From NCBI GenBank assembly GCA_964513235.1, contig CAZEMI010000239.1, positions 3,991-67,990 of the forward strand: 64,000 bases of DNA, written 5' to 3'. This DNA is from an uncultured Acidobacterium sp. (lineage in GTDB: Bacteria; Acidobacteriota; Vicinamibacteria; Vicinamibacterales; UBA2999). The position numbers and the translations under genes were made by a program. The notes under the pieces were generated by a model that saw only the letters and a list, made by a program, of their open reading frames with translations, had not been told where the DNA came from and made no database searches. Positions 9,888-57,611 of the stretch are shown here, piece by piece. How positions within the stretch are numbered: position 1 is the first letter of the stretch; each line of letters begins with the position of its first letter.

Positions 9888-11429
9888 CTACTTCGTTAGA
9901 TTAGACGCTGGAACGGGTGTCGCCGTCGAGCCCGTGATGTCGGTGCGCGGGTTGAAAATGCCCAGGACGGCACGCAGCCGCAACTCGGCCACGGCCGAGT
10001 CGGCGAGCGCCTGGATGCGCCGGCTTTCCGACTGCAGCAACGACGCCTCGGCGGTGACCACGTCGAGGTTGTTCGACAACCCGGTTTCGTAGCGCAGCTG
10101 CGCGACTTCGACCTCGCGGGTGCTGATGTCGACGCTGGTTTCGGCAGCCACCACGCTGCGGATCAGGCGATCGCGCTCGCGCACGATCTGCTTCACGCTA
10201 TCGGCGATCTGCCGCTCCAGCGTCACGGTTTCGCGGCGACGCCGCTCGCGATCGATGATCGCCTGCTGGAATTCGACCTGCTGCGCGGTGCGATCCACGG
10301 GCGAGGAAATGGTGAAGAACGTGGCGAACCGGTAGCCGTCGAGGCCAAAACTGTCACGGAAACTGGGCGCGGTCTCGCGGCGCGTGAACGCGAAGTTGAC
10401 GTCGACTTGCGGCAGCAACTGGTTGCGCGAGAACCGAATCTGGTTCTCCGCATCCTCGGCGACGGCACGGCGGCTCTTGAGATCCAGCCGGTTCGCCAGC
10501 GCAATGCTCGTGGCCGTGGGTACATCGATCGGATCCGTGCTCGGGCGCGGCACCTGGGCGCCGACCTCGAACGGCGTCGTCTGCGAGCGCCCCAGCAGGA
10601 ACGTCAACTGATCGCGCGCGTCCTCGACCGCCGACTGCGCATCGAAGAACTGCATCTCCGATTGCGACACCAGCTGTTGGGACCGCAGCACGTCGAGCTG
10701 CGAGACCAGGCCGGCGTCGAGCTTCGCTTCGGAGGCGTCGCGCAGCCGGCGGGCGCGCAACAGGGTTTGCCGCGCCACCTCGACGAAGGTCTGCTGCGAC
10801 ACCACGCGGTAATACGCCGCCGCCACGTCGACGGCGACCTGCTGCTCCGCGAGCGACTGCTGTCGATCCGCTTCCTCACGCCGCAGTTCCGCGGAGGTCA
10901 GTCCCCGCCGCGACACGCTGCGGCCGAAGCCGCGCAGCAGCGGCTGCGACAAGGTCAACGTGGTGTCGGCGTTATAGAACAACAGGTCGCTGCCATCGCC
11001 GATGTCGCCGGGAATCTGCGCCGACGCGGTGCCGGTGGACAGCCGCAGCTCGGTGCCGGTCACGAGCTTCTGCGACACGTCAACGCGGTAGGTCTGCCCG
11101 CTGCCGTCGTTGCGGCCGAACGATCCGAAGATGTTCGGCGTGATCTTGGGACGGAAGGTGTTGCGCGCGAGCCGCAGGGCGAGGTCGGCCTGCGCGATCG
11201 TATCGCCTTGATTGACGAGGCGCTCGTTCTGCGCGAGCGCCTCCTGCACCGCATCCGTCAGCGTCAGTACGGGTGCACTTGTCTGTCCTTCGACTCGCAA
11301 CCCGGCGCCTGCGGCACCGGGTTGCTCGCTCAGGTTCTGCGACGCCGACGCGGAACTCGCGAAGAGCACGCCGCAGGCGACGCCTGCGGCGACATGAAGC
11401 GCGTAGTGCTTGAACACGTCATCCCTCAT
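9888..11429 (-). CDS. TolC-family outer membrane efflux protein
   Basis: LTLTDAVQEALAQN, LSQPLLRGFG, RYETGLSNNLDVVTAE heptad pattern. Confidence 0.88.
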   Translation of the reverse strand: MRDDVFKHYALHVAAGVACGVLFASSASASQNLSEQPGAAGAGLRVEGQTSAPVLTLTDAVQEALAQNERLVNQGDTIAQADLALRLARNTFRPKITPNIFGSFGRNDGSGQTYRVDVSQKLVTGTELRLSTGTASAQIPGDIGDGSDLLFYNADTTLTLSQPLLRGFGRSVSRRGLTSAELRREEADRQQSLAEQQVAVDVAAAYYRVVSQQTFVEVARQTLLRARRLRDASEAKLDAGLVSQLDVLRSQQLVSQSEMQFFDAQSAVEDARDQLTFLLGRSQTTPFEVGAQVPRPSTDPIDVPTATSIALANRLDLKSRRAVAEDAENQIRFSRNQLLPQVDVNFAFTRRETAPSFRDSFGLDGYRFATFFTISSPVDRTAQQVEFQQAIIDRERRRRETVTLERQIADSVKQIVRERDRLIRSVVAAETSVDISTREVEVAQLRYETGLSNNLDVVTAEASLLQSESRRIQALADSAVAELRLRAVLGIFNPRTDITGSTATPVPASNLTK

Positions 11430-12719: not shown

Positions 12720-14947
12720 TCACGCGCCGCAGCCAGCCCGGGGCAGCAACCCCTCGATCTGGCCGACGTAGTTCCTGGCGTTCTTCGATTCGTCGAGGTG
12801 CGGGTTGATCTGCAGCATCTTCAGGTAGCTGTTGCGCGCATCTTTCAGGTAGCCGCAGGCCTGCCGCGCGTTGAACAGATCGCGATTGACGTTGCCGAGC
12901 AGAAAGTGGGCGATCGGATCGTTCGGGGCGTGGCCGAGCGCGCGCTTGCAGTAGTCGCGCGCCTTGAGCGGATTGCCGACCTTCTGCTCCGAGAGACACA
13001 GGCCGAGAAAGCCGGCGCTGCGCAGGCTGTCGTAGGCGCCCTGGCGATCCGCATGCTTGCGGCTGCCGACGCCGAGCCCGATGAAGTGGAACGCGAGCTT
13101 CGATCCCAGCCCGGTCGAGAAATTCGTGAGGTCGAGGAACGTGCGGTAGTTGGTCCGCGCGTCGGCGTAGAGGCTGATCTGCACCGTGCGATCGGTGCTG
13201 GCCGCCGCCATCTGCCGCAGCGCATCGGCTTTCCAGAGGTGCGCCTGCGCGTTCGACGGCTTGAGCGAGATGGCCTGGTCGGCGGCCACGATCGCCTGGC
13301 CCCACGCCGCCTTGTCCCAATACGCGCGCGCCAGCATCGCATATGCGACATCGTCTTTGGGATCGAGGCGCTGCGCCTCGGTCAGCTCGCGAATGGCCTC
13401 GTCGGGATCGCCCTGTTCGATCAGCACGGCGGCGCATTCCACGCGCGCGTCGACATGCGTCGGATCGATCGCCGTGGCGCGGCGAAAGCTCGCCACCGCC
13501 TCGTCGTGCTTGAGCAGTAACTGGTTCACCTGGCCGAGGTGATACGCGGCGACGGCGTAATCCGGATCGATGTCGAGCGCCTTCTTGAACAACGCCGCGG
13601 CGCGATTCAGATCGCCCTCGCTCTGCTTGCGCTCTATCGGCACGAGGTTCATGAGGCTCAACGACGAGCGCCGGGTGAACAGCAGCTTCTCGCCCTGCTC
13701 GTTGAGCGCCTGCGCCGGCTTCTTGATCTGACGGACGTAGCGGATGCGGAAGCTCACCGCGGATTCCTGTCCCGGGGCAATCATCACTTCCTTGCGATCC
13801 GGCTCGTAGCCCTCGCGCACGCCCTGGAACTCGTGCAGGCCGGACGGCAGGCTCGGGATGACGAGCGGCTTGCCCTTCGACATGCGGCCGACGAGCTTCC
13901 CGTCGAGGTACACGTCGACGTCGTCCATGTTCGACTCGATCACCGCGGTGCCGAGCATCGACGGCGCCTCGTTGGTGCTGTCCGAGAGGCAGGCATTGGC
14001 GACGCCGAGCAGCATCTCGGGCTCGTAGTCGCCGCGCGCGGTGGGCGTCTGCGACAACTGGCGTTCGCGCGCGTAGCGGCGGACGTTGGTGCGGACGTAC
14101 TCGATCAATTCGTCGGCCGTGATGCGGCCGTCACACGGATCGACGTCCGCGTAGCCGCGGAACGCCTGCACCAGGTAGTAGGTGAAGAATCCGAACCCGG
14201 TCGACAGGTTGGGATCTTCAAAGCTCTGTTCGCGCTCGGTGGTGGCCGTGAGCGTGAGGAAGCTGCGCGGCAGCGCGCTGAACTGCTGCTCGAGCGCTTC
14301 GTTGGTGGTCTCGGCGTTGATCTTCCCCGAGTGGCACGCGTCGGTCAGCAACACCTTCCAGTTCGCGCCGACCTTGTTGGCCAGCACATCGCCAACGGTG
14401 GCCATGGCATAGGCGCTGGTCTCGAGCTGGTCGGGATCGACGTCCCACGGCGCCAGATACCCCTTGCCGTTCTGCACAAAACCGTGTCCGGCGAAATACA
14501 CCACCACCCGATCCATCGGCTGCGCCACCTTGGGGAGCCATTCCTCGAGGTGGTACTTGATGTTGGCCAGCGTCGCCTGCTCGCCCTTGAGGAACTTCAC
14601 GTTCTCGGCCGGGAACGCGCCGCCCTCGTGATTGATCAGCACGCGATACATCGCATCGGCGTCCGACTCGGGGAAGCGAAGCTGCTTCGACTCGTCGAGG
14701 TTCTTATACCGGGCGATGCCGACGATCAGCGCGTAACCCCGCGGCACGCCTTCGCGCACCGGGAGCGGCTTGTTACTCGGCGCCAGTACCAGGTCGCGGG
14801 GTGCCTGGGTTGGGGCCTGAGGTGCCTGGGGTGCCTGAGGCTTGTCCTGAGCGCGGGTCGCGGCATCGCCGCGACCAGAGTCGAAGGGTGCCTGCGCCGC
14901 GAGTGGCATCGACACCGCGGCCCAGATGGCGATCGCCAGCAGGCGCT

Positions 14948-14951
<4 letters not shown>
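12720..14951 (-). CDS. Secreted caspase-like peptidase (C14) with PEGA-like domain and TPR repeats
   Basis: Signal peptide; YALIVGIARY; intact dyad YFAGHG and TDACHSG; DVDVYLDGKLVG (PEGA-like); multiple TPR helices (ALDIDPDY, AIDPTH). Confidence 0.85.
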
Positions 14952-22954: not shown

Positions 22955-23042
22955 CCCTCGACTGCGCTCGTCCCTCGACTGCGCTCGGGACGACCTTGAG
23001 CTTGTCGAAAGGTCGGGGCAGCCCTGAGTATCATCGAAGGGC
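22955..23042. repeat. Cluster of REP-like elements (CCCTGAGC...TCGAAGGG family)
   Basis: ccctcgactgcgctcg twice, gaccttgagcttgtcgaaaggtc hairpin, and gccctgagtatcatcgaagggc overlapping the regulator stop. Confidence 0.75.
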
Positions 23043-28301: not shown

Positions 28302-29455
28302 TATTTCAGAACGGGGCTCAGGATTCTAAAAGGCCCGGATAACCGTACTTCCCGCATCTTTCCATCCTTCCACCGCACGATCGCGTACAGCAGCGCGCAT
28401 AGCAGCACCGTCCCGAGCCACGAAAACTCGAGCGGCATCGAGCGACGCAGCGGCAGGGCGATGGCGCCATACGCCATCTCGACGTGAATCCAGTAGACGA
28501 ACAGCGACGACCGGCCGAGCGTCGTGATCACGCGGCCGGGCACATCGGGCGCGGTGAAGAGCGCGGCCCAGCGCCGCCGCACGAACACGTGGCAGCGATC
28601 GATCGCCCATGCCGTCGGCACGAGCGCCGTGTTCAGTCCCAGGCGCATGAAAAAGAACGTCGGCGAGCTGGTCCAGAAACTGGCATTCGGATAGATCGCC
28701 GGCTGGAACGACAGCGCATAGGCGACGGCGATGCCGGCGATCCCGGCGATGAGCAGGCCGAGTTGCAACCGCCGCTCCGCGCGATCGGTGTGCGCCGCAT
28801 GGACGAGCTCCCCGGTGATGGCGCCGCCGAGCAGGAAGCCGGCCCACGGGAACCACGCGAAGTTGCTGCGGCCGGCCAGCGGGCGAACGTAGGCTTCCAT
28901 GGCATCCGGCAGCGCCGCGAGCCATCCCGCCTCTCTCACGAGCGGCGTGCTCATCGCCAACGCCGCCGTCGCCAGCGAAAACAGCGCGATGCGAGCAGCC
29001 CGATGCGACGACAGGCTCCACAGGATCGCCGCGGCGAGCATCGCGAGGCCCATGATGTTGAGGATGTCGACCTTGAGGAGGTTGACCAGCGGTCCCCATC
29101 CAAGCAACTGCGCCTGCAGCCTGAAGAGGAATGCCAGCGCGAAGATCTGCAGCCCGCGCACACACGCCATGCGCGCCGCGGCCCGATGTCCCACCGCGGT
29201 GGCGCGGGCCGACGCCGCCATCGACAGCGTCAGGCCGGCGAGGAACAGGAACAACGGCGCCGCGAGCCCGGCGATGATCACCGTGTAGCCGTAGAGATCG
29301 CGCTGGCGATCCTCGACGCGGGTCCATGCGTCGGTGACGTGCGCGGCGACCATCACGGTGACGGCGATGCCGCGCAGCCAGTCGAGATACGGCTTGCGCT
29401 TCGTCCTGGGCGTGGTCGAAAGGCTCGCCCTGAGCGGAGTCGAAGGGCTGGCCAC
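28301..29455 (-). CDS. DUF1624 / heparan-alpha-glucosaminide N-acetyltransferase-like membrane acyltransferase
   Basis: YLDWLRGIAVTVMVAAH, APLFLFLAG, NFAWFPWAGF, LGRSSLFVYWIH. Confidence 0.75.
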   Translation of the reverse strand: MASPSTPLRASLSTTPRTKRKPYLDWLRGIAVTVMVAAHVTDAWTRVEDRQRDLYGYTVIIAGLAAPLFLFLAGLTLSMAASARATAVGHRAAARMACVRGLQIFALAFLFRLQAQLLGWGPLVNLLKVDILNIMGLAMLAAAILWSLSSHRAARIALFSLATAALAMSTPLVREAGWLAALPDAMEAYVRPLAGRSNFAWFPWAGFLLGGAITGELVHAAHTDRAERRLQLGLLIAGIAGIAVAYALSFQPAIYPNASFWTSSPTFFFMRLGLNTALVPTAWAIDRCHVFVRRRWAALFTAPDVPGRVITTLGRSSLFVYWIHVEMAYGAIALPLRRSMPLEFSWLGTVLLCALLYAIVRWKDGKMREVRLSGPFRILSPVLK

Positions 29456-29484
29456 AGGGCTAGCCCTGAGCGGAGTCGACGGGT
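29427..29484. repeat. Two direct copies of a REP-like element GCCCTGAGCGGAGTCGA(A/C)GGG
   Basis: Copies at 29427-29448 and 29463-29484, inside the 5' end of the DUF1624 gene and the 3' end of osmC. Confidence 0.8.
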
Positions 29485-51049: not shown

Positions 51050-52453
51050 GTGCCTGAGACGCTCGTCACCGTCGCGTATCTGGCCGCCGGATTACTTTTT
51101 ATTTTCAGCCTCGGCGGGCTGTCGGCGCAGGAGTCGGCGCCCCGCGGCAACCTGTTCGGCATGGCCGGCATGCTGATCGCCGTGCTGGTCACGGCCGTTG
51201 GTCCGCGTGTCGACAGCTACATGGTGATGACGGTCGCGCTGGTGATCGGCGGCGCGATCGGCGCCATGCTGGCGGCACGCGTCGGGATGACCTCGATGCC
51301 GCAGCTGGTGGCGATCCTCCACAGCTTCGTCGGCGCGGCGGCGGTGCTCGTCGGCATTGCCACGACGCTCGACCACAGCCAGCTGTTTACCGGCATCGAA
51401 CGGCGCATCCACGACACCGAGATCTTCGTCGGCATCTTCGTCGGCGCCATTACGTTCACCGGGTCGGTGGTGGCCTTCGGCAAGCTGCAGGGCGTGATCG
51501 GCAGCAAGCCGCTCCTGTTGCCGGGCCGCCACGTGATGAACCTGGTGATGCTACTGGCGTGCCTCTATCTCGGCGACGTCTTCGTCACCTACGGCGACTA
51601 CTTCCCCGTGCTCTGGCCGTTACTGGTCGTGACGGCGATCGCCTCGCTGATGGGCATCCACCTGGTGATGGCCATCGGCGGCGCCGACATGCCGGTGGTG
51701 GTCTCGATGTTGAACAGCTACTCGGGGTGGGCCGCGGCGGCGGCGGGCTTCATGCTCGAGAACGACCTGCTGATCATTACCGGCGCGCTGGTCGGTTCGA
51801 GCGGCGCGATCCTCAGCTACATCATGTGCGCCGCGATGAACCGATCGTTCCTGAGCGTGATTCTCGGTGGCTTCGGCGCCGAGGAAGGTGCGGCTCCGGC
51901 GGGCGGATCGGCGCAACCGGCCGGCGAAGTCAAGTCGGTGACGGCGGAAGAGACCGCGGATCTCCTGCGCGATGCCAAGAGCGTGATCGTGGTGCCGGGC
52001 TATGGCATGGCGGTGGCGCAGGCGCAGTACCCGCTGTATGAAGTCACCAAGCTGCTGCGCGACAAGGGCGCGAACGTGCGGTTCGCGATCCATCCCGTGG
52101 CCGGCCGCCTCCCCGGTCACATGAACGTGCTGCTGGCGGAAGCCAAGGTGCCGTACGACATCGTGCTGGAGATGGAAGAGATCAACCAGGAGTTTCCCAC
52201 CACGGACCTGGTGCTCGTGATCGGCGCCAACGACATCGTCAATCCGGGCGCCCTCGACGATCCGTCGAGCCCGATCTACGGCATGCCGATCCTCGAAGTG
52301 TGGAAGGCGAAGACCGCCATCGTGATGAAGCGCGGCATGGCCAGCGGCTATGCCGGGGTCGACAACCCGCTGTTCTACAAGGACAACACGCGGATGCTGT
52401 TCGGCGACGCGAAGAAGATGATCGACGCGGTACTGACCGCGCTGAACAGCTAG
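51050..52453 (+). CDS. pntB: NAD(P) transhydrogenase beta subunit
   Basis: [64 protein letters not shown]. Confidence 0.96.
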
Positions 52454-52483
52454 GCCACCGATTCACACCGATTCGACACCGAT
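52454..52483 (+). repeat. Single arm of the GCCACCGAT-(T/C)ACACCGAT repeat family
   Basis: gccaccgattcacaccgattcgacaccgat directly after the pntB stop; similar to 6877-6896; weaker relative at 50982-51020. Confidence 0.6.
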
Positions 52484-52529
52484 CCACGCGCCTCGCCAGG
52501 GCGCCTTACTTTGTAAATAAAAGTTCTTT

Positions 52530-54041
52530 GTGTATGCTGGGCGGGTGCATTACCTGCTTCGCCGGACGCGACGCGTCAAACTGATCCTCCCGGCCCTCAC
52601 CGAAGCCACCAGCCCCTACTGGCGACCCGTCAAATATTCGCTGTTTCCGCCGCTCGGCCTGGCCACGCTCGCCGCGTATCTCGATCACGACGCCGAGGTC
52701 GCGCTCCAGGACGAGCACGTCGAGCCGCTCGACCTCGACGACGACCCGGACCTGGTAGTGATCCAGGTCTACATCACCAATGCGTATCGCGCCTACCGCA
52801 TCGCGGACCACTACCGGCGCAAGGGCGCGCACGTGGCGCTCGGCGGCCTGCACGTCACCTCCCTGCCCGATGAGGCCGCGCCCCACGCCGACACGATCTT
52901 TCTCGGCCCAGGCGAAGACACGTTCCCCCAATTCCTTCGCGACCTCGCCGGCGGCGTGCCGAAACGTCGTTATGTGTCGCAACTGAGAACGCTCGATCAC
53001 CTGCCGCCCATTCGCCGCGACCTGATCCGGCGCCACCGCTACCTCGTGCCCAATTCGATCGTCGTGTCTCGCGGCTGTCCGCACCACTGCACGTTCTGCT
53101 ACAAGGACGCCTTCTTCGAGGGCGGGCGCTCGTTCTACACGCAGCGCGTGGATGCGGCGCTCGCGGAGATCAACCGGCTGCCGGGACGCCACCTGTATTT
53201 CCTCGACGATCACCTGCTCGGCAACCGCAGGTTCGCCCGCGAGTTGTTCACCGGCATGACCGGGATGAACCGGGTGTTCCAGGGCGCGGCCACCGTGGAT
53301 TCGATCCTGCGCGACGACACGATCGAATACGCCGCCGCCGCGGGCCTGCGCAGCCTGTTCGTGGGATTCGAGACGCTGTCGCCGCGCGGCCTGGCCGGCG
53401 CCGGCAAGCGACAGAACCTCGGCCGCCCATTCGACTCGCCGATTGGCGCGGTGCGCCAGTCGGCTCGCTCAGGGCAGGCGACCCACTATCGGGAGGCCAT
53501 CCGCCGGCTCGACGATCTCGGCATCATGATCAACGGCAGCTTCGTCTTCGGCCTCGATGGCGACGATCCCGACGTGTTTCGGCGCACCGTCGATTGGGCC
53601 GTGGCGAGCGGCATCACGACCGCGACCTTTCACGTGCTCACGCCCTATCCGGGCACGCAGCTGTACGCCGAGATGACCGGGCAAGGGCGAATCGTGACCG
53701 GCAACTGGGATCTCTACGACACGCGGCACGTGGTCTATCGGCCGCTTGGGCTGTCCGCGGAGGAGCTCACGCGCGGCTACGACTGGTCGTACCGCGCCTT
53801 CTATGAGTGGGGCGCCATCGTCAAGGGGGCATTCGCGCATCGATCGGCGAAGCATTCCCTGAAGCACTTCGCGTACAGCGCCGGCTGGAAGAAGTTCGAG
53901 CCCGCGTGGGACGTCGTCATTCGCCTCAAGCAACTGGCGCAGATGCGGCCGTTGCTCGAGGCGATCCTCGCACCCGTGCGACACGCTCCGCAAATCGCGG
54001 CAGCCCCGGTTGCGCTAGAATCGCGGCACCTCTCCCGTTGA
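52530..54041 (+). CDS. B12-binding radical SAM protein
   Basis: PPLGLATLA, LGGLHVT (B12 domain), SRGCPHHCTFC (CxxxCxxC), FVGFET, GSFVFGLDGD, LTPYPGT; likely start GTG 52545. Confidence 0.92.
   Translation: MYAGRVHYLLRRTRRVKLILPALTEATSPYWRPVKYSLFPPLGLATLAAYLDHDAEVALQDEHVEPLDLDDDPDLVVIQVYITNAYRAYRIADHYRRKGAHVALGGLHVTSLPDEAAPHADTIFLGPGEDTFPQFLRDLAGGVPKRRYVSQLRTLDHLPPIRRDLIRRHRYLVPNSIVVSRGCPHHCTFCYKDAFFEGGRSFYTQRVDAALAEINRLPGRHLYFLDDHLLGNRRFARELFTGMTGMNRVFQGAATVDSILRDDTIEYAAAAGLRSLFVGFETLSPRGLAGAGKRQNLGRPFDSPIGAVRQSARSGQATHYREAIRRLDDLGIMINGSFVFGLDGDDPDVFRRTVDWAVASGITTATFHVLTPYPGTQLYAEMTGQGRIVTGNWDLYDTRHVVYRPLGLSAEELTRGYDWSYRAFYEWGAIVKGAFAHRSAKHSLKHFAYSAGWKKFEPAWDVVIRLKQLAQMRPLLEAILAPVRHAPQIAAAPVALESRHLSR
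53425..53475. repeat. REP-like palindrome inserted in frame in the radical SAM gene
   Basis: gccc-a-ttcgactc...gctcagggc is the reverse complement of the 29427 element, with a 12-bp inner hairpin gccgattggcgc/gcgccagtcggc. Confidence 0.75.
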
Positions 54042-54053
54042 GAGTGACGAACC

Positions 54054-54443
54054 ATGAAGTCGCCAAACGGCCGCTGCACGGTCACGAAGATCGACTACAA
54101 CGAAACTCGCATGGGTGGTCCGCTGATCGGGCGGATTCACGTCGATGGCGGCCGCGCGAAAACCGGGGAGCGCGAATTCGGAGAGGCGATGGCGTTTAGT
54201 CCCGACTCGCGTTACCTGGCCATCGGCGAACTCGTCGGCGTGACCAGGGACCATGCCGGGCCGCACAGCCAGGTCGTGGTTTTCGACCTCGAGCTGGGGA
54301 AGGAATACGTCGTTCATGACGAATACGGCGGATTGATCCACGGCGTGTCCTGGGATGTGCAAGGCTGCCTGTCGGTGACCGCGTGGCGGTACCCGGACGG
54401 TGAATCGGAACACCGCGACGTTTGGGGGCCGAGCCTGCCATGA
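54054..54443 (+). CDS. Small beta-rich hypothetical protein (partial propeller-like)
   Basis: AFSPDSRYLAIGE..VVVFDL; stop overlaps the next ATG. Confidence 0.55.
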   Translation: MKSPNGRCTVTKIDYNETRMGGPLIGRIHVDGGRAKTGEREFGEAMAFSPDSRYLAIGELVGVTRDHAGPHSQVVVFDLELGKEYVVHDEYGGLIHGVSWDVQGCLSVTAWRYPDGESEHRDVWGPSLP

Positions 54444-55012
54444 TCGATCAGATCGCGGCGGTGATCGTGAGCGAGAACAAATGGCTGCCGCTGGCCATGT
54501 CCGCGGCGGTCGGGTCGGTGGCCGTGTTGCTCGCCCGGCAGCGCGGCTCGGATCTGCCCACGACTCGCCTCGTGATGGCGGCGATGAATCTCTTCGCCGG
54601 CGTCATGCTCGCGACGATGGGAGCCGGGCACGTGCTGGCGGTGACCACGAAGCTGCTGCTCGGGACGCTGGAAGGATCACCGCTCGTCCTGTATCCAATC
54701 GGCGCCGCGGTCCTCGTGCCGTCGTGGCTCGTCATCGCTCACACCCGCGCGATCATGGTCAGAGCGGATTCCGGCAGGACAACCATCGGCCTCAACGCCT
54801 GGCTCGCCGTCACGCTCATGGCGCTGGGGCTGCACAACTTGCCGCTCGCGGCGCCCTCGTTGTTAAATATCGGCTATCGCCTGCACTCGCGCCGGGCGAT
54901 CGGCATGGCGATCGTCAGCGTGGCGGTGGTGTTCAACGTGGCGCTGTTCATCGGCGCGTTGGTGTTCATGGCCAGCGGACAGACGTTCGAACAGTTCAGT
55001 GAAATCGAATAG
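54440..55012 (+). CDS. Integral membrane protein of unknown function
   Basis: Five to six hydrophobic helices; start ATG 54440. Confidence 0.65.
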   Translation: MIDQIAAVIVSENKWLPLAMSAAVGSVAVLLARQRGSDLPTTRLVMAAMNLFAGVMLATMGAGHVLAVTTKLLLGTLEGSPLVLYPIGAAVLVPSWLVIAHTRAIMVRADSGRTTIGLNAWLAVTLMALGLHNLPLAAPSLLNIGYRLHSRRAIGMAIVSVAVVFNVALFIGALVFMASGQTFEQFSEIE

Positions 55013-55021
55013 GCACTGCCT

Positions 55022-55519
55022 ATGACGGTCGATCCTGATCCCGCCGCGCTCGTCTCGTCGTTCGCCGACGCGGCACTGCGTGTCGAGACGTTGGGTCGGC
55101 TGCAACAGCTCGGCGTCGCGGCGCTGCCGGCGGTCCGGGAAGGGCTGAAGCACCCCGACTGGCACATCCGGCACTGGTGCGCCATCTACCTCGATCGCGG
55201 CGCCGATCCCGAGACGCTCCGCGACCTGGTGCCCTTGCTGACGGATCCGGAACCTAAAGTGCGCGTGTGGGCGATCCATTCGATCTCGTGCGAGCACTGC
55301 AAGGATGACGAGTGCCCGGTCGACGTGGTGCCTCTGCTAATCGAGCGTGCCGAGCGGGATAGCGTGCCGCGCGTTCGGAAGATGGCAATCGCGATGCTGG
55401 CCAGCCTGCCCGACGATCCCCGGATCGCCCCGGTCCTGCAACGCGCGCTCGTGGTCGAGTCGGATGCGAAAATTCGCCTGCACGCCAGGCTCGGTCTCGA
55501 GAAGTATTCAACCGCGTAA
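55022..55519 (+). CDS. HEAT-repeat protein with a CxxCx4C motif
   Basis: LKHPDWHIRHW, LTDPEPKVRVWA, DSVPRVRKMA; SCEHCKDDEC. Confidence 0.7.
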   Translation: MTVDPDPAALVSSFADAALRVETLGRLQQLGVAALPAVREGLKHPDWHIRHWCAIYLDRGADPETLRDLVPLLTDPEPKVRVWAIHSISCEHCKDDECPVDVVPLLIERAERDSVPRVRKMAIAMLASLPDDPRIAPVLQRALVVESDAKIRLHARLGLEKYSTA

Positions 55520-55560
55520 GCCGCGCGTCGGGCGGTCGCGCAGGGTAACATGACGCATTC

Positions 55561-56385
55561 ATGAGCTCCGTTTTCGCCGACGCCACGCTGGCGCGGCGCC
55601 TCGAAACCACCGAGGGTCAGGGCAACGCCGCGTTTGTCGACGCGCAGGCGCGGCACGAGCCGTACTCCGGCGCCATCCGCACCGGGATTGCCGGCACGCA
55701 GGTCATGTTCGCCGGCGTCGGTTCGCCGATCACCCAAACGTTCGGCCTCGGCATCCATCAGCGTCCCGGCGACCGTGACCTCGATGCGATCGAGCGTTTT
55801 TTCACGTCACGGGGGTCCGCGGTCTTTCACGAAGTGAGCCCGCACGCCGGCGTCGAGGTGCTGGCGATGCTCGCGGGGCGCGGCTACAAGCCGGTTGAGA
55901 TCTCGAACGTCATGTTTCGGGAGATCAAGGGTGCGCAGGGTGCACAGGGTGCGCAAGGTGCGCAAGGTGCACAGGGTGCCCTTCGGGTCAGGCGCGTCCA
56001 TCTCGACGAGGCCGAGTGGTATGGCAGCATTGCGGCACGCGGGTGGAGCCAGGAAGCGCCGGAAGTCTTGCCATTCATCCACGGCTTCGCCCGATCCAGC
56101 GTGGAATGCGCCACGTGTTTCGTCGCCGAGCACGATGGCCAGGCCATTGCCACCGCCGCGCTGTTCATGCATGGCGGCGTCGCATTGTTGGCGGGCGCGA
56201 GCACGGTACCCGAAGGCCGCCGCAAGGGCGCGCAACTCGCGCTGCTCGACACTCGTCTCAGTACCGCGGCATCACACGGGTGCGACCTGGCGATGATGGT
56301 CGCCGCGCCGGGCAGCGCCTCGCAGCGCAACGCCGAGCGGAATGGTTTTCGCGTCGCTTACACACGCACCAAATGGCAATTATGA
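55561..56385 (+). CDS. GNAT-family acetyltransferase
   Basis: ALLAGASTVPEGRRKGAQLALL..RL..A...GCDLA....PGSASQRNAERNGF. Confidence 0.85.
   Translation: MSSVFADATLARRLETTEGQGNAAFVDAQARHEPYSGAIRTGIAGTQVMFAGVGSPITQTFGLGIHQRPGDRDLDAIERFFTSRGSAVFHEVSPHAGVEVLAMLAGRGYKPVEISNVMFREIKGAQGAQGAQGAQGAQGALRVRRVHLDEAEWYGSIAARGWSQEAPEVLPFIHGFARSSVECATCFVAEHDGQAIATAALFMHGGVALLAGASTVPEGRRKGAQLALLDTRLSTAASHGCDLAMMVAAPGSASQRNAERNGFRVAYTRTKWQL
55930..55980 (+). repeat. 9-bp tandem repeat GGTGC(G/A)CA(G/A) x5.7, encoding (GAQ)5GA
   Basis: ggtgcgcag ggtgcacag ggtgcgcaa ggtgcgcaa ggtgcacag ggtgcc. Confidence 0.85.
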
Positions 56386-56438
56386 AGACATGGGCCGGGG
56401 GTGGCACTTCTTGCCGGGGTCGACGTCACGTGCCGGGA

Positions 56439-57611
56439 ATGGCACTACGGGCCGGGTTAATCGTTGCGCTGATCTTCGCGAACTCGCCGAGCGCGTTGGC
56501 GCAGTCGACGCGCGTCGAGACCATCGCCGAAGAACAGGCCGAGAAGGCCAGGCAGCTGGGCGCCGAGGGCCCGGGCGGGGCCGAACAGGTGATCCGACGG
56601 GTCCTGCTCTCGCCGCTGCTGTCGGGCGGCGACGGCGCCTATCCCTGGTTCGGCAGCGTCTACAGCGGCACGGGCATGGCGATCGGCGCCGGCTACCTGA
56701 AACGCCTCGAGAAGGCGGCCTCGATCAACGTGCAGACCGGCATCTCGCTCAACAACTCGATGATGCTGCGCGGCAACGTCGTGGCGCCGGAATTGTGGCG
56801 CGGTATGTTGCAAGTCGACGCCAGTGCGCAGTGGATGGACGCGCGCGGCGTGTCGTTCTACGGTCTCGGCCAGCACTCGTCGAAACAGACGCGGCAACGC
56901 TACGACTACACACCGATGGAAGCCGGCGCCAACGCCACGCTCAAGCCGATGCGGTTCCTGTCGGTGAGCGGCAGCTATTCGTTCCTCGCCCTCGATACCA
57001 ATCGCGATCTGCAGTTTTTCACCGAGGCCGAAATGCCGGGCATCGATCGCGAGCTGGCCTACCACGTGACGCGGGCGACGGTGGCCCTCGACTGGCGCAC
57101 CTCGCCAGGCTACAGCACCCGGGGCGGCTACTATCGCGCGACGATCGAACGCAACCGCGAGACCGGCGGTGAGCCGTTCTCGTTCCGGTCGCAGGAATAC
57201 GAGCTGGTGCAGCTGCTGCCGCTCATGCGCGAACAGTTCGTGCTGGCCGCGCGCGCCCTGATAACGGTCACCACGCCCGATGCCGGCCACGACGTGCCGG
57301 TGATGCTGGCGCCGTTTCTCGGCAGCGGCAGCACGTTGCGCGGGTTCGCGAATCGCCGGTTGTCGGATCGCAATCGCGTGCTGTTCAGCGGTGAATATCG
57401 CTGGCGGCCGTCACGCTATCTCGACATGGCCCTGTTCATGGATGCCGGCCAGGTGGCCGCCGATCGCCGTGATTTTCGCGCCGGCGAGTTCGAAACCGCG
57501 TGGGGACTGGGCGCGCGGTTCCATGGACCGAACTTCAACGCCTTGAGGATCGAGGCGGCACGGGGCCGTGAAGGCCTCCGCCTGATCTTCGCCGGATCGC
57601 AGGCCTTCTGA
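56439..57611 (+). CDS. Omp85 (BamA/TamA-superfamily) beta-barrel without POTRA domains
   Basis: Signal peptide; amphipathic strands; LGSGSTLRGF loop-6 motif; LFSGEYRW, LFMDAGQV, WGLGARF; terminal Phe; alternative start ATG 56382. Confidence 0.75.
   Translation: MALRAGLIVALIFANSPSALAQSTRVETIAEEQAEKARQLGAEGPGGAEQVIRRVLLSPLLSGGDGAYPWFGSVYSGTGMAIGAGYLKRLEKAASINVQTGISLNNSMMLRGNVVAPELWRGMLQVDASAQWMDARGVSFYGLGQHSSKQTRQRYDYTPMEAGANATLKPMRFLSVSGSYSFLALDTNRDLQFFTEAEMPGIDRELAYHVTRATVALDWRTSPGYSTRGGYYRATIERNRETGGEPFSFRSQEYELVQLLPLMREQFVLAARALITVTTPDAGHDVPVMLAPFLGSGSTLRGFANRRLSDRNRVLFSGEYRWRPSRYLDMALFMDAGQVAADRRDFRAGEFETAWGLGARFHGPNFNALRIEAARGREGLRLIFAGSQAF

Follow-up and report, generated by a model that had tools for sequence, protein, structure and literature searches.

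In-frame selfish palindromes are textbook material for Rickettsia only. Small dispersed repeats (SDR) of heterocystous cyanobacteria, ascribed to work by Elhai and colleagues from 2008, are reportedly ~20-30 nt long, lack a transposase, show presence or absence at the same site among relatives and are sometimes nested. Rickettsia palindromic elements (RPE; Ogata et al. 2000, 2002), as summarised in PMC10969869, are ~150 bp units with a conserved peptide, and the NTS and Ssn-related motifs (SRM) are oriented hairpin repeats that flank the gene of an SsnA-type GIY-YIG nuclease of single-stranded DNA (Chenal et al. 2025, PMC11893778). Here we analyse a 64,000-nt stretch of DNA from an uncultured soil acidobacterium of the order Vicinamibacterales (contig CAZEMI010000239.1; hereafter the window), in which the gene of a radical SAM enzyme (52530..54041, + strand) carries a 60-nt palindromic segment in frame at 53427..53486 (+ strand). 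This segment belongs to a family of miniature, non-coding palindromic repeats that is restricted to the genus and that, with a probability of roughly 0.8, is mobile now or was so recently. The copy is read through, because its boxes contain no stop codon in any sense frame; it adds a 19-residue loop, modelled as disordered, that separates a short helix from the following helix of the radical SAM barrel and is tolerated by the enzyme.

By kind, the element is an RPE-like, coding-tolerant palindromic repeat; it is new in its anatomy, its size, its host, its same-site gain and loss across species and a possible nuclease partner. Like RPE, it forms a dispersed palindromic family that sits in frame in unrelated housekeeping genes, adds fold-compatible extra peptides and has no transposase of its own. 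Unlike RPE, judged by size and description, the element measures ~55 nt and consists of two short boxes and a variable palindrome; it also occurs in both orientations and several frames, with a peptide that varies with frame and orientation, and in a free-living soil acidobacterium. Queries with element sequences and typical peptides retrieved no earlier description of the family from Rfam or the searchable literature. That the family is selfish, as an earlier note on this DNA proposed from the sequence, is a label that we infer.

The genome of the window (G000) comprises 5.96 Mb in 311 contigs at 65% GC; G-numbers denote genomes, C-numbers contigs, L-numbers loci, P-numbers proteins and WIN the window allele. 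The insert was delimited by alignment of the 120 best homologs (78-100% identity; Vicinamibacterales where named) and by comparing the DNA of filled and empty alleles. Its 20 codons (peptide PFDSPIGAVRQSARSGQATH) replace one Asp codon (GAY) of the orthologs, yielding a net gain of 57 nt or 19 residues, and read CCA TTC GAC TCG CCG ATT GGC GCG GTG CGC CAG TCG GCT CGC TCA GGG CAG GCG ACC CAC. The left box CCA-TTCGACTC (53427..53437, + strand) is composed of the outer-stem CCC, which is CCA in this copy, and the conserved left half TTCGACTC (53430-53437). It is followed by the inner palindrome (53438..53464, + strand), whose 12-nt arms (53438-53449 and 53453-53464) enclose a 3-nt loop, and by the right box TCGCTCAGGGCAGGCG (53465..53480, + strand), which holds the conserved right half, the outer-stem GGG and a GCAGGC tail. 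Family position weights, invariant alignment columns and conservation at synonymous sites of the orthologs define both boxes, and the palindrome was identified via hairpin search and DNA folding (-21.6 kcal/mol, z = -2.8); its arms are 92% complementary with one G-T. A second genomic copy of this inner hairpin, as a possible donor, was not found in G000, where its sequence is unique.

The earlier note had described a REP-like palindrome in frame at 53425-53475. Its account of peptide and DNA is borne out by our reading of the open reading frame (ORF), and its location stands, with the exact limits moved to those given above. It had also compared the insert with a short element at 29427: the flanks TTCGACTC and TCGCTCAGGGC (53465-53475) are indeed the two halves of the reverse complement of gccctgagcggagtcgaagggc (29427-29448), but the hairpin form is the commoner form of the family and not a one-off variant. 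The predicted gain of roughly 19-20 residues agrees with the orthologs, where 60 nt stand in place of one codon: 98 of the 120 homologs read KRQNLGR-D-YREVIRRL, 21 have 17-19 extra residues and one (P0024/L171) carries a deletion scar, GHAAGQAAL. A segment of the same length in palindrome-free orthologs, which would speak against an insertion, was looked for and not found among them. Modelled as had been suggested, the insert comes out as a loop, and a disordered one: in the AlphaFold2 prediction (38-sequence alignment, mean predicted local distance difference test score (pLDDT) 76.5), residues 287-312 of P0001, whose numbering starts five residues later, have pLDDT values below 50 and no secondary structure, and they lie between helix 280-285 and helix 311-324. 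In the model, the insert is therefore a disordered 19-residue loop.

The same anatomy, CCC-TTCGACTC, a sequence-variable inner palindrome and then TCGCTCAGGGCAGGC, recurs throughout G000. The boxes are asymmetric (TTCGACTC on one side, TCGCTCA and then GGGCAGGC on the other), the outer stem CCC/GGG spans 3 bp and the inner palindrome 9-14 bp. By position weights, the element extends from CCC at the left to GGCAGGC at the right, and nothing outside these ends is conserved. A strict pattern, TTCGACTC-N20-36-TCGCTCAGG, matches 120 times in G000 compared with no match for the reversed control. The gap from TTCGAC to GCTCAG is bimodal: 82 copies have 2-3 nt there and ~150 have 24-37 nt, and reversed or swapped control motifs display no such peaks. 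Long-class copies with an inner hairpin of at least 7 bp number 116; this hairpin-bearing "long" form is commoner than the hairpin-less "short" one (~85 copies). Overlap tests were based on a set of 201 elements of G000.

The inner palindrome differs in nearly every copy of G000; between unrelated loci, the differences are symmetric double substitutions. Across 30 copies of equal length, 91% of the inner-hairpin cells are paired compared with 57% after shuffling, 13 of 13 inner pairs have changed on both sides, and only ~4 cells hold a G-U pair. Some inner hairpins of relatives are themselves inverted short elements, forming nested copies. Watson-Crick pairing nearly devoid of G-U, with copies in both orientations relative to genes, is the mark of a palindrome kept in the DNA, with pairing on either strand, and not of a fold in RNA. 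Symmetric double substitutions without G-T intermediates are produced when intramolecular template switching corrects quasi-palindromes (Ripley-type mutagenesis). The changes seen between copies, and between orthologs of the radical SAM gene, are symmetric in the same way, and pairing may be kept by, for example, such template-switch correction. Being a mutational process and not an element family, it would account for hairpin maintenance, not for dispersal.

Genes of G000 were called with our own codon-usage caller (4698 genes, 89% coding), and coding potential was tested on both sides of each copy. The caller over-extends 5' ends, and "genic" copies within ~150 nt of a start were therefore left out of the count of in-frame insertions. 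Most long copies lie outside genes in two settings, 32 just 5' of a same-orientation gene and 26 without coding on either side, with fewer in other intergenic arrangements. The same frame is coding on both sides of 14 long copies; two of these are chance matches without extended boxes, leaving 12 in-frame hosts. In sense orientation, these are the radical SAM gene, the linker of an E2 acyltransferase, EtfB, a Ser/Thr kinase, HolB, a lytic transglycosylase and an S9 peptidase; in antisense orientation, a threonine-synthase-like (ThrC-like) gene, a sodium:solute symporter, a GH15 enzyme, a VOC protein and an anti-sigma factor. All three hosts checked against orthologs (radical SAM, HolB and EtfB) contain genuine insertions. 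The boxes are free of stop codons in two of three antisense frames besides all sense frames, and the ~11 other in-frame long copies, which lie in unrelated genes and cover two sense frames as well as the antisense orientation, uphold the earlier proposal of a coding-compatible dispersed family. Copies internal to genes make up ~11% of all copies, whereas coding sequence makes up 89% of the genome. This implies a strong depletion of insertions within genes, and those that survive there are in frame. The family is probably mobile now or was recently, judging from these sequence comparisons, with insertions surviving mainly outside genes, or in frame and in loops.

The family is distributed unevenly among genomes. 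Within the genus, the strict pattern occurs 0-135 times in 24 genomes (G006 135, G000 120, G003 99, G011 90, G018 52), compared with 0-7 times in 16 other genera of the order, and it is essentially absent from 200 genomes across the phylum except G172, which contains 17 copies. Such uneven copy numbers indicate that the family expands and contracts on the time scale of species. G172 belongs to the same phylum but to another family; at least 7 of its 17 copies are the identical long-form TTCGACTCCGTTTGGCCCAAAAGCCGGCCAAACGTCGCTCAGG at different loci (e.g., C1:130329-130371, C1:319285-319327 and C4:267180-267222), pointing to a recent burst in a distant lineage.

Gain and loss at a single site are seen in two further host genes. 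The EtfB site is empty in G011, whose protein is 97% identical to that of G000, in G019, in G007 and in readable outgroups. G000, G003 and G006 carry the long form there, all three with one and the same inner hairpin; G010 has a short form (DPSTGSGQAGG), and G014, G008 and G018 retain relics. The elements of G000 and G003 are identical at 44 of 45 positions, compared with 64% identity at third positions of the gene, which is unexpected under co-divergence (own binomial estimate, p about 0.003), and the flanks of G000 resemble those of G011 up to ~9 nt from the element. The HolB element was seen only in G000 among 20 readable HolB loci; two loci, including that of the closest relative G011, fell outside the search pattern, and the shorter match length of G011 suggests that it has no insert. 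Together with the 0-135 copies among congeners, the HolB insert seen in G000 alone and the filled, empty, short and relic states of EtfB support the activity in this lineage that had been proposed. The element follows (A/C)TCGAC in EtfB and HolB, and the radical SAM target ends in CGCGAC; these three sites hint that the target may resemble the element's own left box. In L200 (G003), L201 (G006) and L212 (G008), the loop of HolB that has the element in G000, flanked by ...NC and CGxC, contains another repeat that is rich in GAACC (NLREEPPSGTAARTFVENL and similar). This makes the loop a recurrent landing place for small, unrelated repeats.

The insert of the radical SAM gene has a longer history. 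It was found in 2 of 79 readable loci of one-per-species genomes, and in none of at least 80 metagenome loci from JGI among the matches listed. Distant orthologs from other Acidobacteriota and from records labelled Chloroflexota or Bacteroidota read GRDY, GRSY or GKDY without an insert; the empty state is therefore ancestral. We compared the DNA of ten filled and three empty alleles. Among the filled ones, the boxes are nearly invariant, and the hairpin is kept in most, with a compensatory CCG..CGG <-> CGG..CCG change between orthologs, and has decayed in L168 and L169. At third positions, the filled alleles diverge by 10.7% within the boxes, compared with 34% for the hairpin and 36% for the remainder of the gene. 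The likeness of hairpin and gene indicates that the insert is as old as the divergences of the gene, and that the hairpin-encoded residues are unconstrained; this radical SAM insertion is itself old by its neutrally diverged hairpin sequence, which tempers the word "active" at this locus. The low value of the boxes implies that they are held at the nucleotide level. Because they are so held inside a coding region, the boxes probably form a putative recognition site for a trans-acting factor, and the palindrome is probably maintained for pairing within the DNA and not for a structure in its RNA.

With the insert columns left out of tree building, the filled state requires 18 changes among the 120 proteins, close to random (shuffled mean 20.6), and well-supported branches force at least 12 of them. 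A single filled clade is rejected by the approximately unbiased (AU) test (difference in log-likelihood 859, p = 5e-7). Two junction types exist, NL-GR-PFDSP... and NL-PFDSR..., the latter with PF in place of GR, and they split gene sisters, namely the window allele and L165 (94% DNA identity) as well as L170 and L172. Empty alleles read GGC CGC GAC TAT. The residues after the insert are nearly always YxxA in filled alleles and YxxV in empty ones. The scattered presence at one codon may reflect re-insertion of the element alone into a (T/G)CGAC target, or an insertion that happened once, long ago, and has since been exchanged between alleles and lost.

One ancient, immobile insertion whose scatter arose via homologous recombination of filled and empty alleles among related soil lineages, together with deletion, and likewise for EtfB, is a serious alternative to which we give somewhat less than even odds. 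The radical SAM inserts are all homologous in that they have common boxes, a GGCGC-N3-GCGCC core and the right junction in common. Their hairpins have diverged as far as synonymous sites, and insert and gene distances agree positively, if weakly (Mantel r = 0.36, p = 0.02). The linkage of YxxA to filled and YxxV to empty alleles and the one deletion scar in P0024/L171 point the same way, as do local identity dips around the insert in WIN/L165 and L166/L085, which fit mosaic alleles. This history would, however, require at least 12 exchanges in 120 sequences, and all 98 empty alleles are scar-free GR-[D/N]-Y. It also leaves the conservation of the boxes at synonymous sites to be explained separately. 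At EtfB, moreover, the high identity between G000 and G003 ends within ~9 nt of the element, in flanks that are like G011 in G000, so that any conversion tract would be about the size of the element. Two further explanations fare worse. That the segment is a functional structure instead of selfish DNA, whether a hairpin in RNA with a regulatory, pausing or stabilising role or a protein loop selected as an adaptation of this enzyme, is improbable. The nucleotide-level constraint on the boxes within a coding region, the 32 long copies just 5' of a same-orientation gene and the long retention of the insert in many lineages would suit such a role. Rfam, however, yielded no hit at the gathering threshold over the window and none at E <= 1 over 53380-53520, and Watson-Crick pairing with almost no G-U, together with copies in both orientations relative to genes, fits a DNA palindrome. 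The hairpin-encoded residues are neutral and the loop is modelled as disordered, most orthologs lack the insert, and the same element occurs in unrelated proteins. GC-rich genomes yield many short palindromes and metagenome-assembled genomes can be chimeric, which could suggest an ordinary lineage-specific indel resembling the repeat by chance, or an assembly artefact. We give this explanation hardly any credence: the 120 strict-pattern matches compared with none for the control argue against chance resemblance, since the insert agrees with that family in all 17 specified bases and a 12-bp hairpin, and it is present in at least 21 independent assemblies (ENA, JGI, NCBI and Logan).

If the family of repeats is mobile, a factor encoded elsewhere would move it, and a RAYT (Y1 HUH transposase) acting on a REP/REPIN-type element, the link suggested in the earlier note, is a very improbable one. 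Seamless excision is attributed to REP and IS200-IS605 systems and would suit the clean empty sites, and G000 encodes four RAYT-like Y1_Tnp (PF01797) proteins (C286:4485-4826, C21:23411-23734, C240:2430-2756 and C265:23257-23529). None of these genes, however, has an element within 2.5 kb; each has a distinct repeat of its own to either side (GGGAACCTGCTTCCC; GCTAAGTTGGGG...; GGGGACAGACCCCCA; tandem GACCGGCCGCGTGAACGCCC), and the element lacks a GTAG-type 5' tetranucleotide. The resemblance to REP/REPIN-RAYT systems (PMC3116915) is that of short extragenic hairpin repeats expanded by lineage; the differences are that no Y1 gene is associated with the element, that stems are variable and that coding positions are tolerated. 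The genome itself thus appears to harbor four separate REP-RAYT-type systems.

A different candidate is a small single-domain GIY-YIG nuclease, and that it drives the element remains a tentative proposal that we regard as rather doubtful. G000 has four small (~100-residue) UPF0213-like GIY-YIG genes (C222:22131-22820, C58:17363-17819, C61:1850-2215 and C84:9068-9400), two behind tRNA-Glu and tRNA-Ser and two behind tRNA 3' fragments; element copies lie just upstream of two of the four. In relatives, some element copy is found at 11 of 12 C222-like loci (L174-L185), and at 9 of the 12 a box-sharing hairpin (cca-TTCGACTCxCC-hairpin-GGxTCGCTCATGGCxAGCCAT) abuts the CCA end of a tRNA, 130-250 nt upstream of the gene and in the same orientation. 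G003 has a cassette-like arrangement with the unit "ggtacca + hairpin" on both sides of the GIY-YIG gene. As controls, UvrC loci have an element nearby in only one of seven cases. Stop codons are present in many of the relatives' copies. The nuclease, with its own tRNA-end cassettes bounded by a variant of the element, would be a driver analogous to those of the NTS/SRM-Ssn and REP-RAYT systems. With NTS/SRM-Ssn, the element has in common an oriented, non-palindromic conserved flank plus a variable hairpin, hundreds of copies and, at some loci, the bracketing of a small single-domain GIY-YIG gene. A still bolder scheme, which we consider unlikely, is homing-type mobile DNA: a trans-acting nuclease, for which the GIY-YIG protein is the candidate, would detect the TTCGACTC / TCGCTCAGGG boxes in folded single-stranded DNA and place a copy of nothing but the ~55-nt unit in the same (T/G)CGAC target codon of orthologs from different species. 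The tRNA-end cassette would be the autonomous master, and the hundreds of solo hairpins, among them those translated within enzymes, would be its non-autonomous offspring.

Several observations weigh against a mobile family moved by such a nuclease. Other small GIY-YIG loci have an element copy in only ~5 of 14 cases. Presence of the gene does not track copy number, as G011 has 90 copies and no C222-like gene, several low-copy genomes have the gene, and the burst genome G172 has no element beside its small GIY-YIG genes. Unlike the nucleases of the NTS/Ssn systems, the local protein is UPF0213-like; it matches UPF0213 structures (PDB 1zg2 and 1ywl) and does not demonstrably belong to the Ssn family. 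The SRM pattern HGTCWY-N0-2-YYVSBRH-N0-5-WNVSBRG-N0-2-RNCYNB has 48 matches in the genome, none of which overlaps any of the 201 elements, and the insert itself matches it on neither strand. It is because of the paralogs, the copy numbers, the UPF0213 match and the SRM pattern that we rate this driver as low as we do. Concerning the element, neither terminal inverted repeats beyond CCC/GGG nor a target-site duplication were found via position weights or in the three filled/empty comparisons, the two features by which miniature inverted-repeat transposable elements are recognised. A strict target motif is likewise absent genome-wide, with GAC upstream of 21% of copies compared with 13% in the background. 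A simple excision model fails as well, since removal of 60 nt leaves GR-Y and not GRDY, and neither allele can be converted into the other in one excision. Finally, almost no two copies in G000 share an inner hairpin, so that either no recent burst has occurred there or hairpins change fast.

The host protein (503 residues; ORF call, Pfam and Foldseek) contains an N-terminal B12-binding domain (PF02310, residues 39-135) and a radical SAM core (PF04055, 177-357) with CPHHCTFC as its CxxxCxxC motif. The solved folds nearest to its AlphaFold model are AprD4 (6fd2), MgmA (9ccb) and TsrM (6wte), on account of which the modelled protein is assigned to the class B radical SAM enzymes, with its substrate unassigned; an NCBIfam scan gave no equivalog at the cut-off, and the weak best matches were HpnJ, HpnR and BchE. 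The gene neighbourhood is kept across metagenomes (L165-L173; window 51050-57611), with a PntB transhydrogenase upstream and, downstream, two small ORFs without Pfam domains (129 and 190 residues), a HEAT-repeat protein and an Omp85 barrel. Despite this conservation, the gene was found in only 7 of 16 congeners searched.

Further copies lie elsewhere in the window. The short-form copy gccc-TTCGAC-TCC-GCTCAG-ggc (29427..29448, 22 nt, read on the - strand), whose reverse complement was the basis of the earlier comparison, has a partial second short copy beside it (29460-29480). The related variants reported near 22955 are present, as an intergenic cluster of short forms at 22955..23042 (CTCGACTGCGCTCG twice, CCTTGAGCTTGTCGAAAGG and CCCTGAGTATCATCGAAGGGC; no strand assigned). 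Many short copies, such as C61:1950-2010 and those of this cluster, belong to a composite unit of greater length, CGACCC-TTCGAC-NN-GCTCAGGGTCATCCCGAGCG-N-AGTCGAAGGG, and CGACCC is located just upstream of 24 of 85 short copies; the short form is therefore not one homogeneous family. By description, SDR differ from the short form TTCGAC-N2-3-GCTCAGGG in sequence and phylum. Two copies in the window exemplify positions at called gene 5' ends: a long-form copy at 11289..11333 (+ strand; TTCGAC..GCTCAG span) with a 12-13-bp inner hairpin, antisense to a - strand gene and near its called 5' end, and a sense-oriented long-form copy at 14847..14885 (- strand), 66 nt inside the called 5' end of gene 12720-14951 (-). 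When ORFs are extended upstream through 5'-adjacent long copies, frame 0 (TTC GAC TCG) leads, with 32 compared with 14 and 2. Either translation of many of these copies extends proteins at the N terminus, or copies close to gene starts favour a certain position or frame.

A much smaller element would thus behave in an RPE-like manner in a free-living soil phylum, and hundreds of metagenomic orthologs provide a natural experiment in which one codon is filled, empty, shortened or decayed. The family accounts for spurious peptides (of the PFDS...ARSGQ, PSTR...SLRAG and ALSE...VEG types) and for length polymorphisms in annotations of conserved Acidobacteriota enzymes. The system is tractable, with boxes conserved at synonymous sites next to a drifting hairpin, an element that alone is near-identical between distant congeners at one site, RAYT excluded, and a tRNA-end GIY-YIG cassette carrying a variant of the element. 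What moves the smallest bacterial repeats thereby becomes testable with one 108-residue protein, the GIY-YIG protein encoded at C222:22131-22454, and one 55-nt oligonucleotide. If the homing scheme were true, the element would represent a class of transposition that is new: driven by a nuclease, tolerant of coding sequence and almost seamless in its gain and loss.

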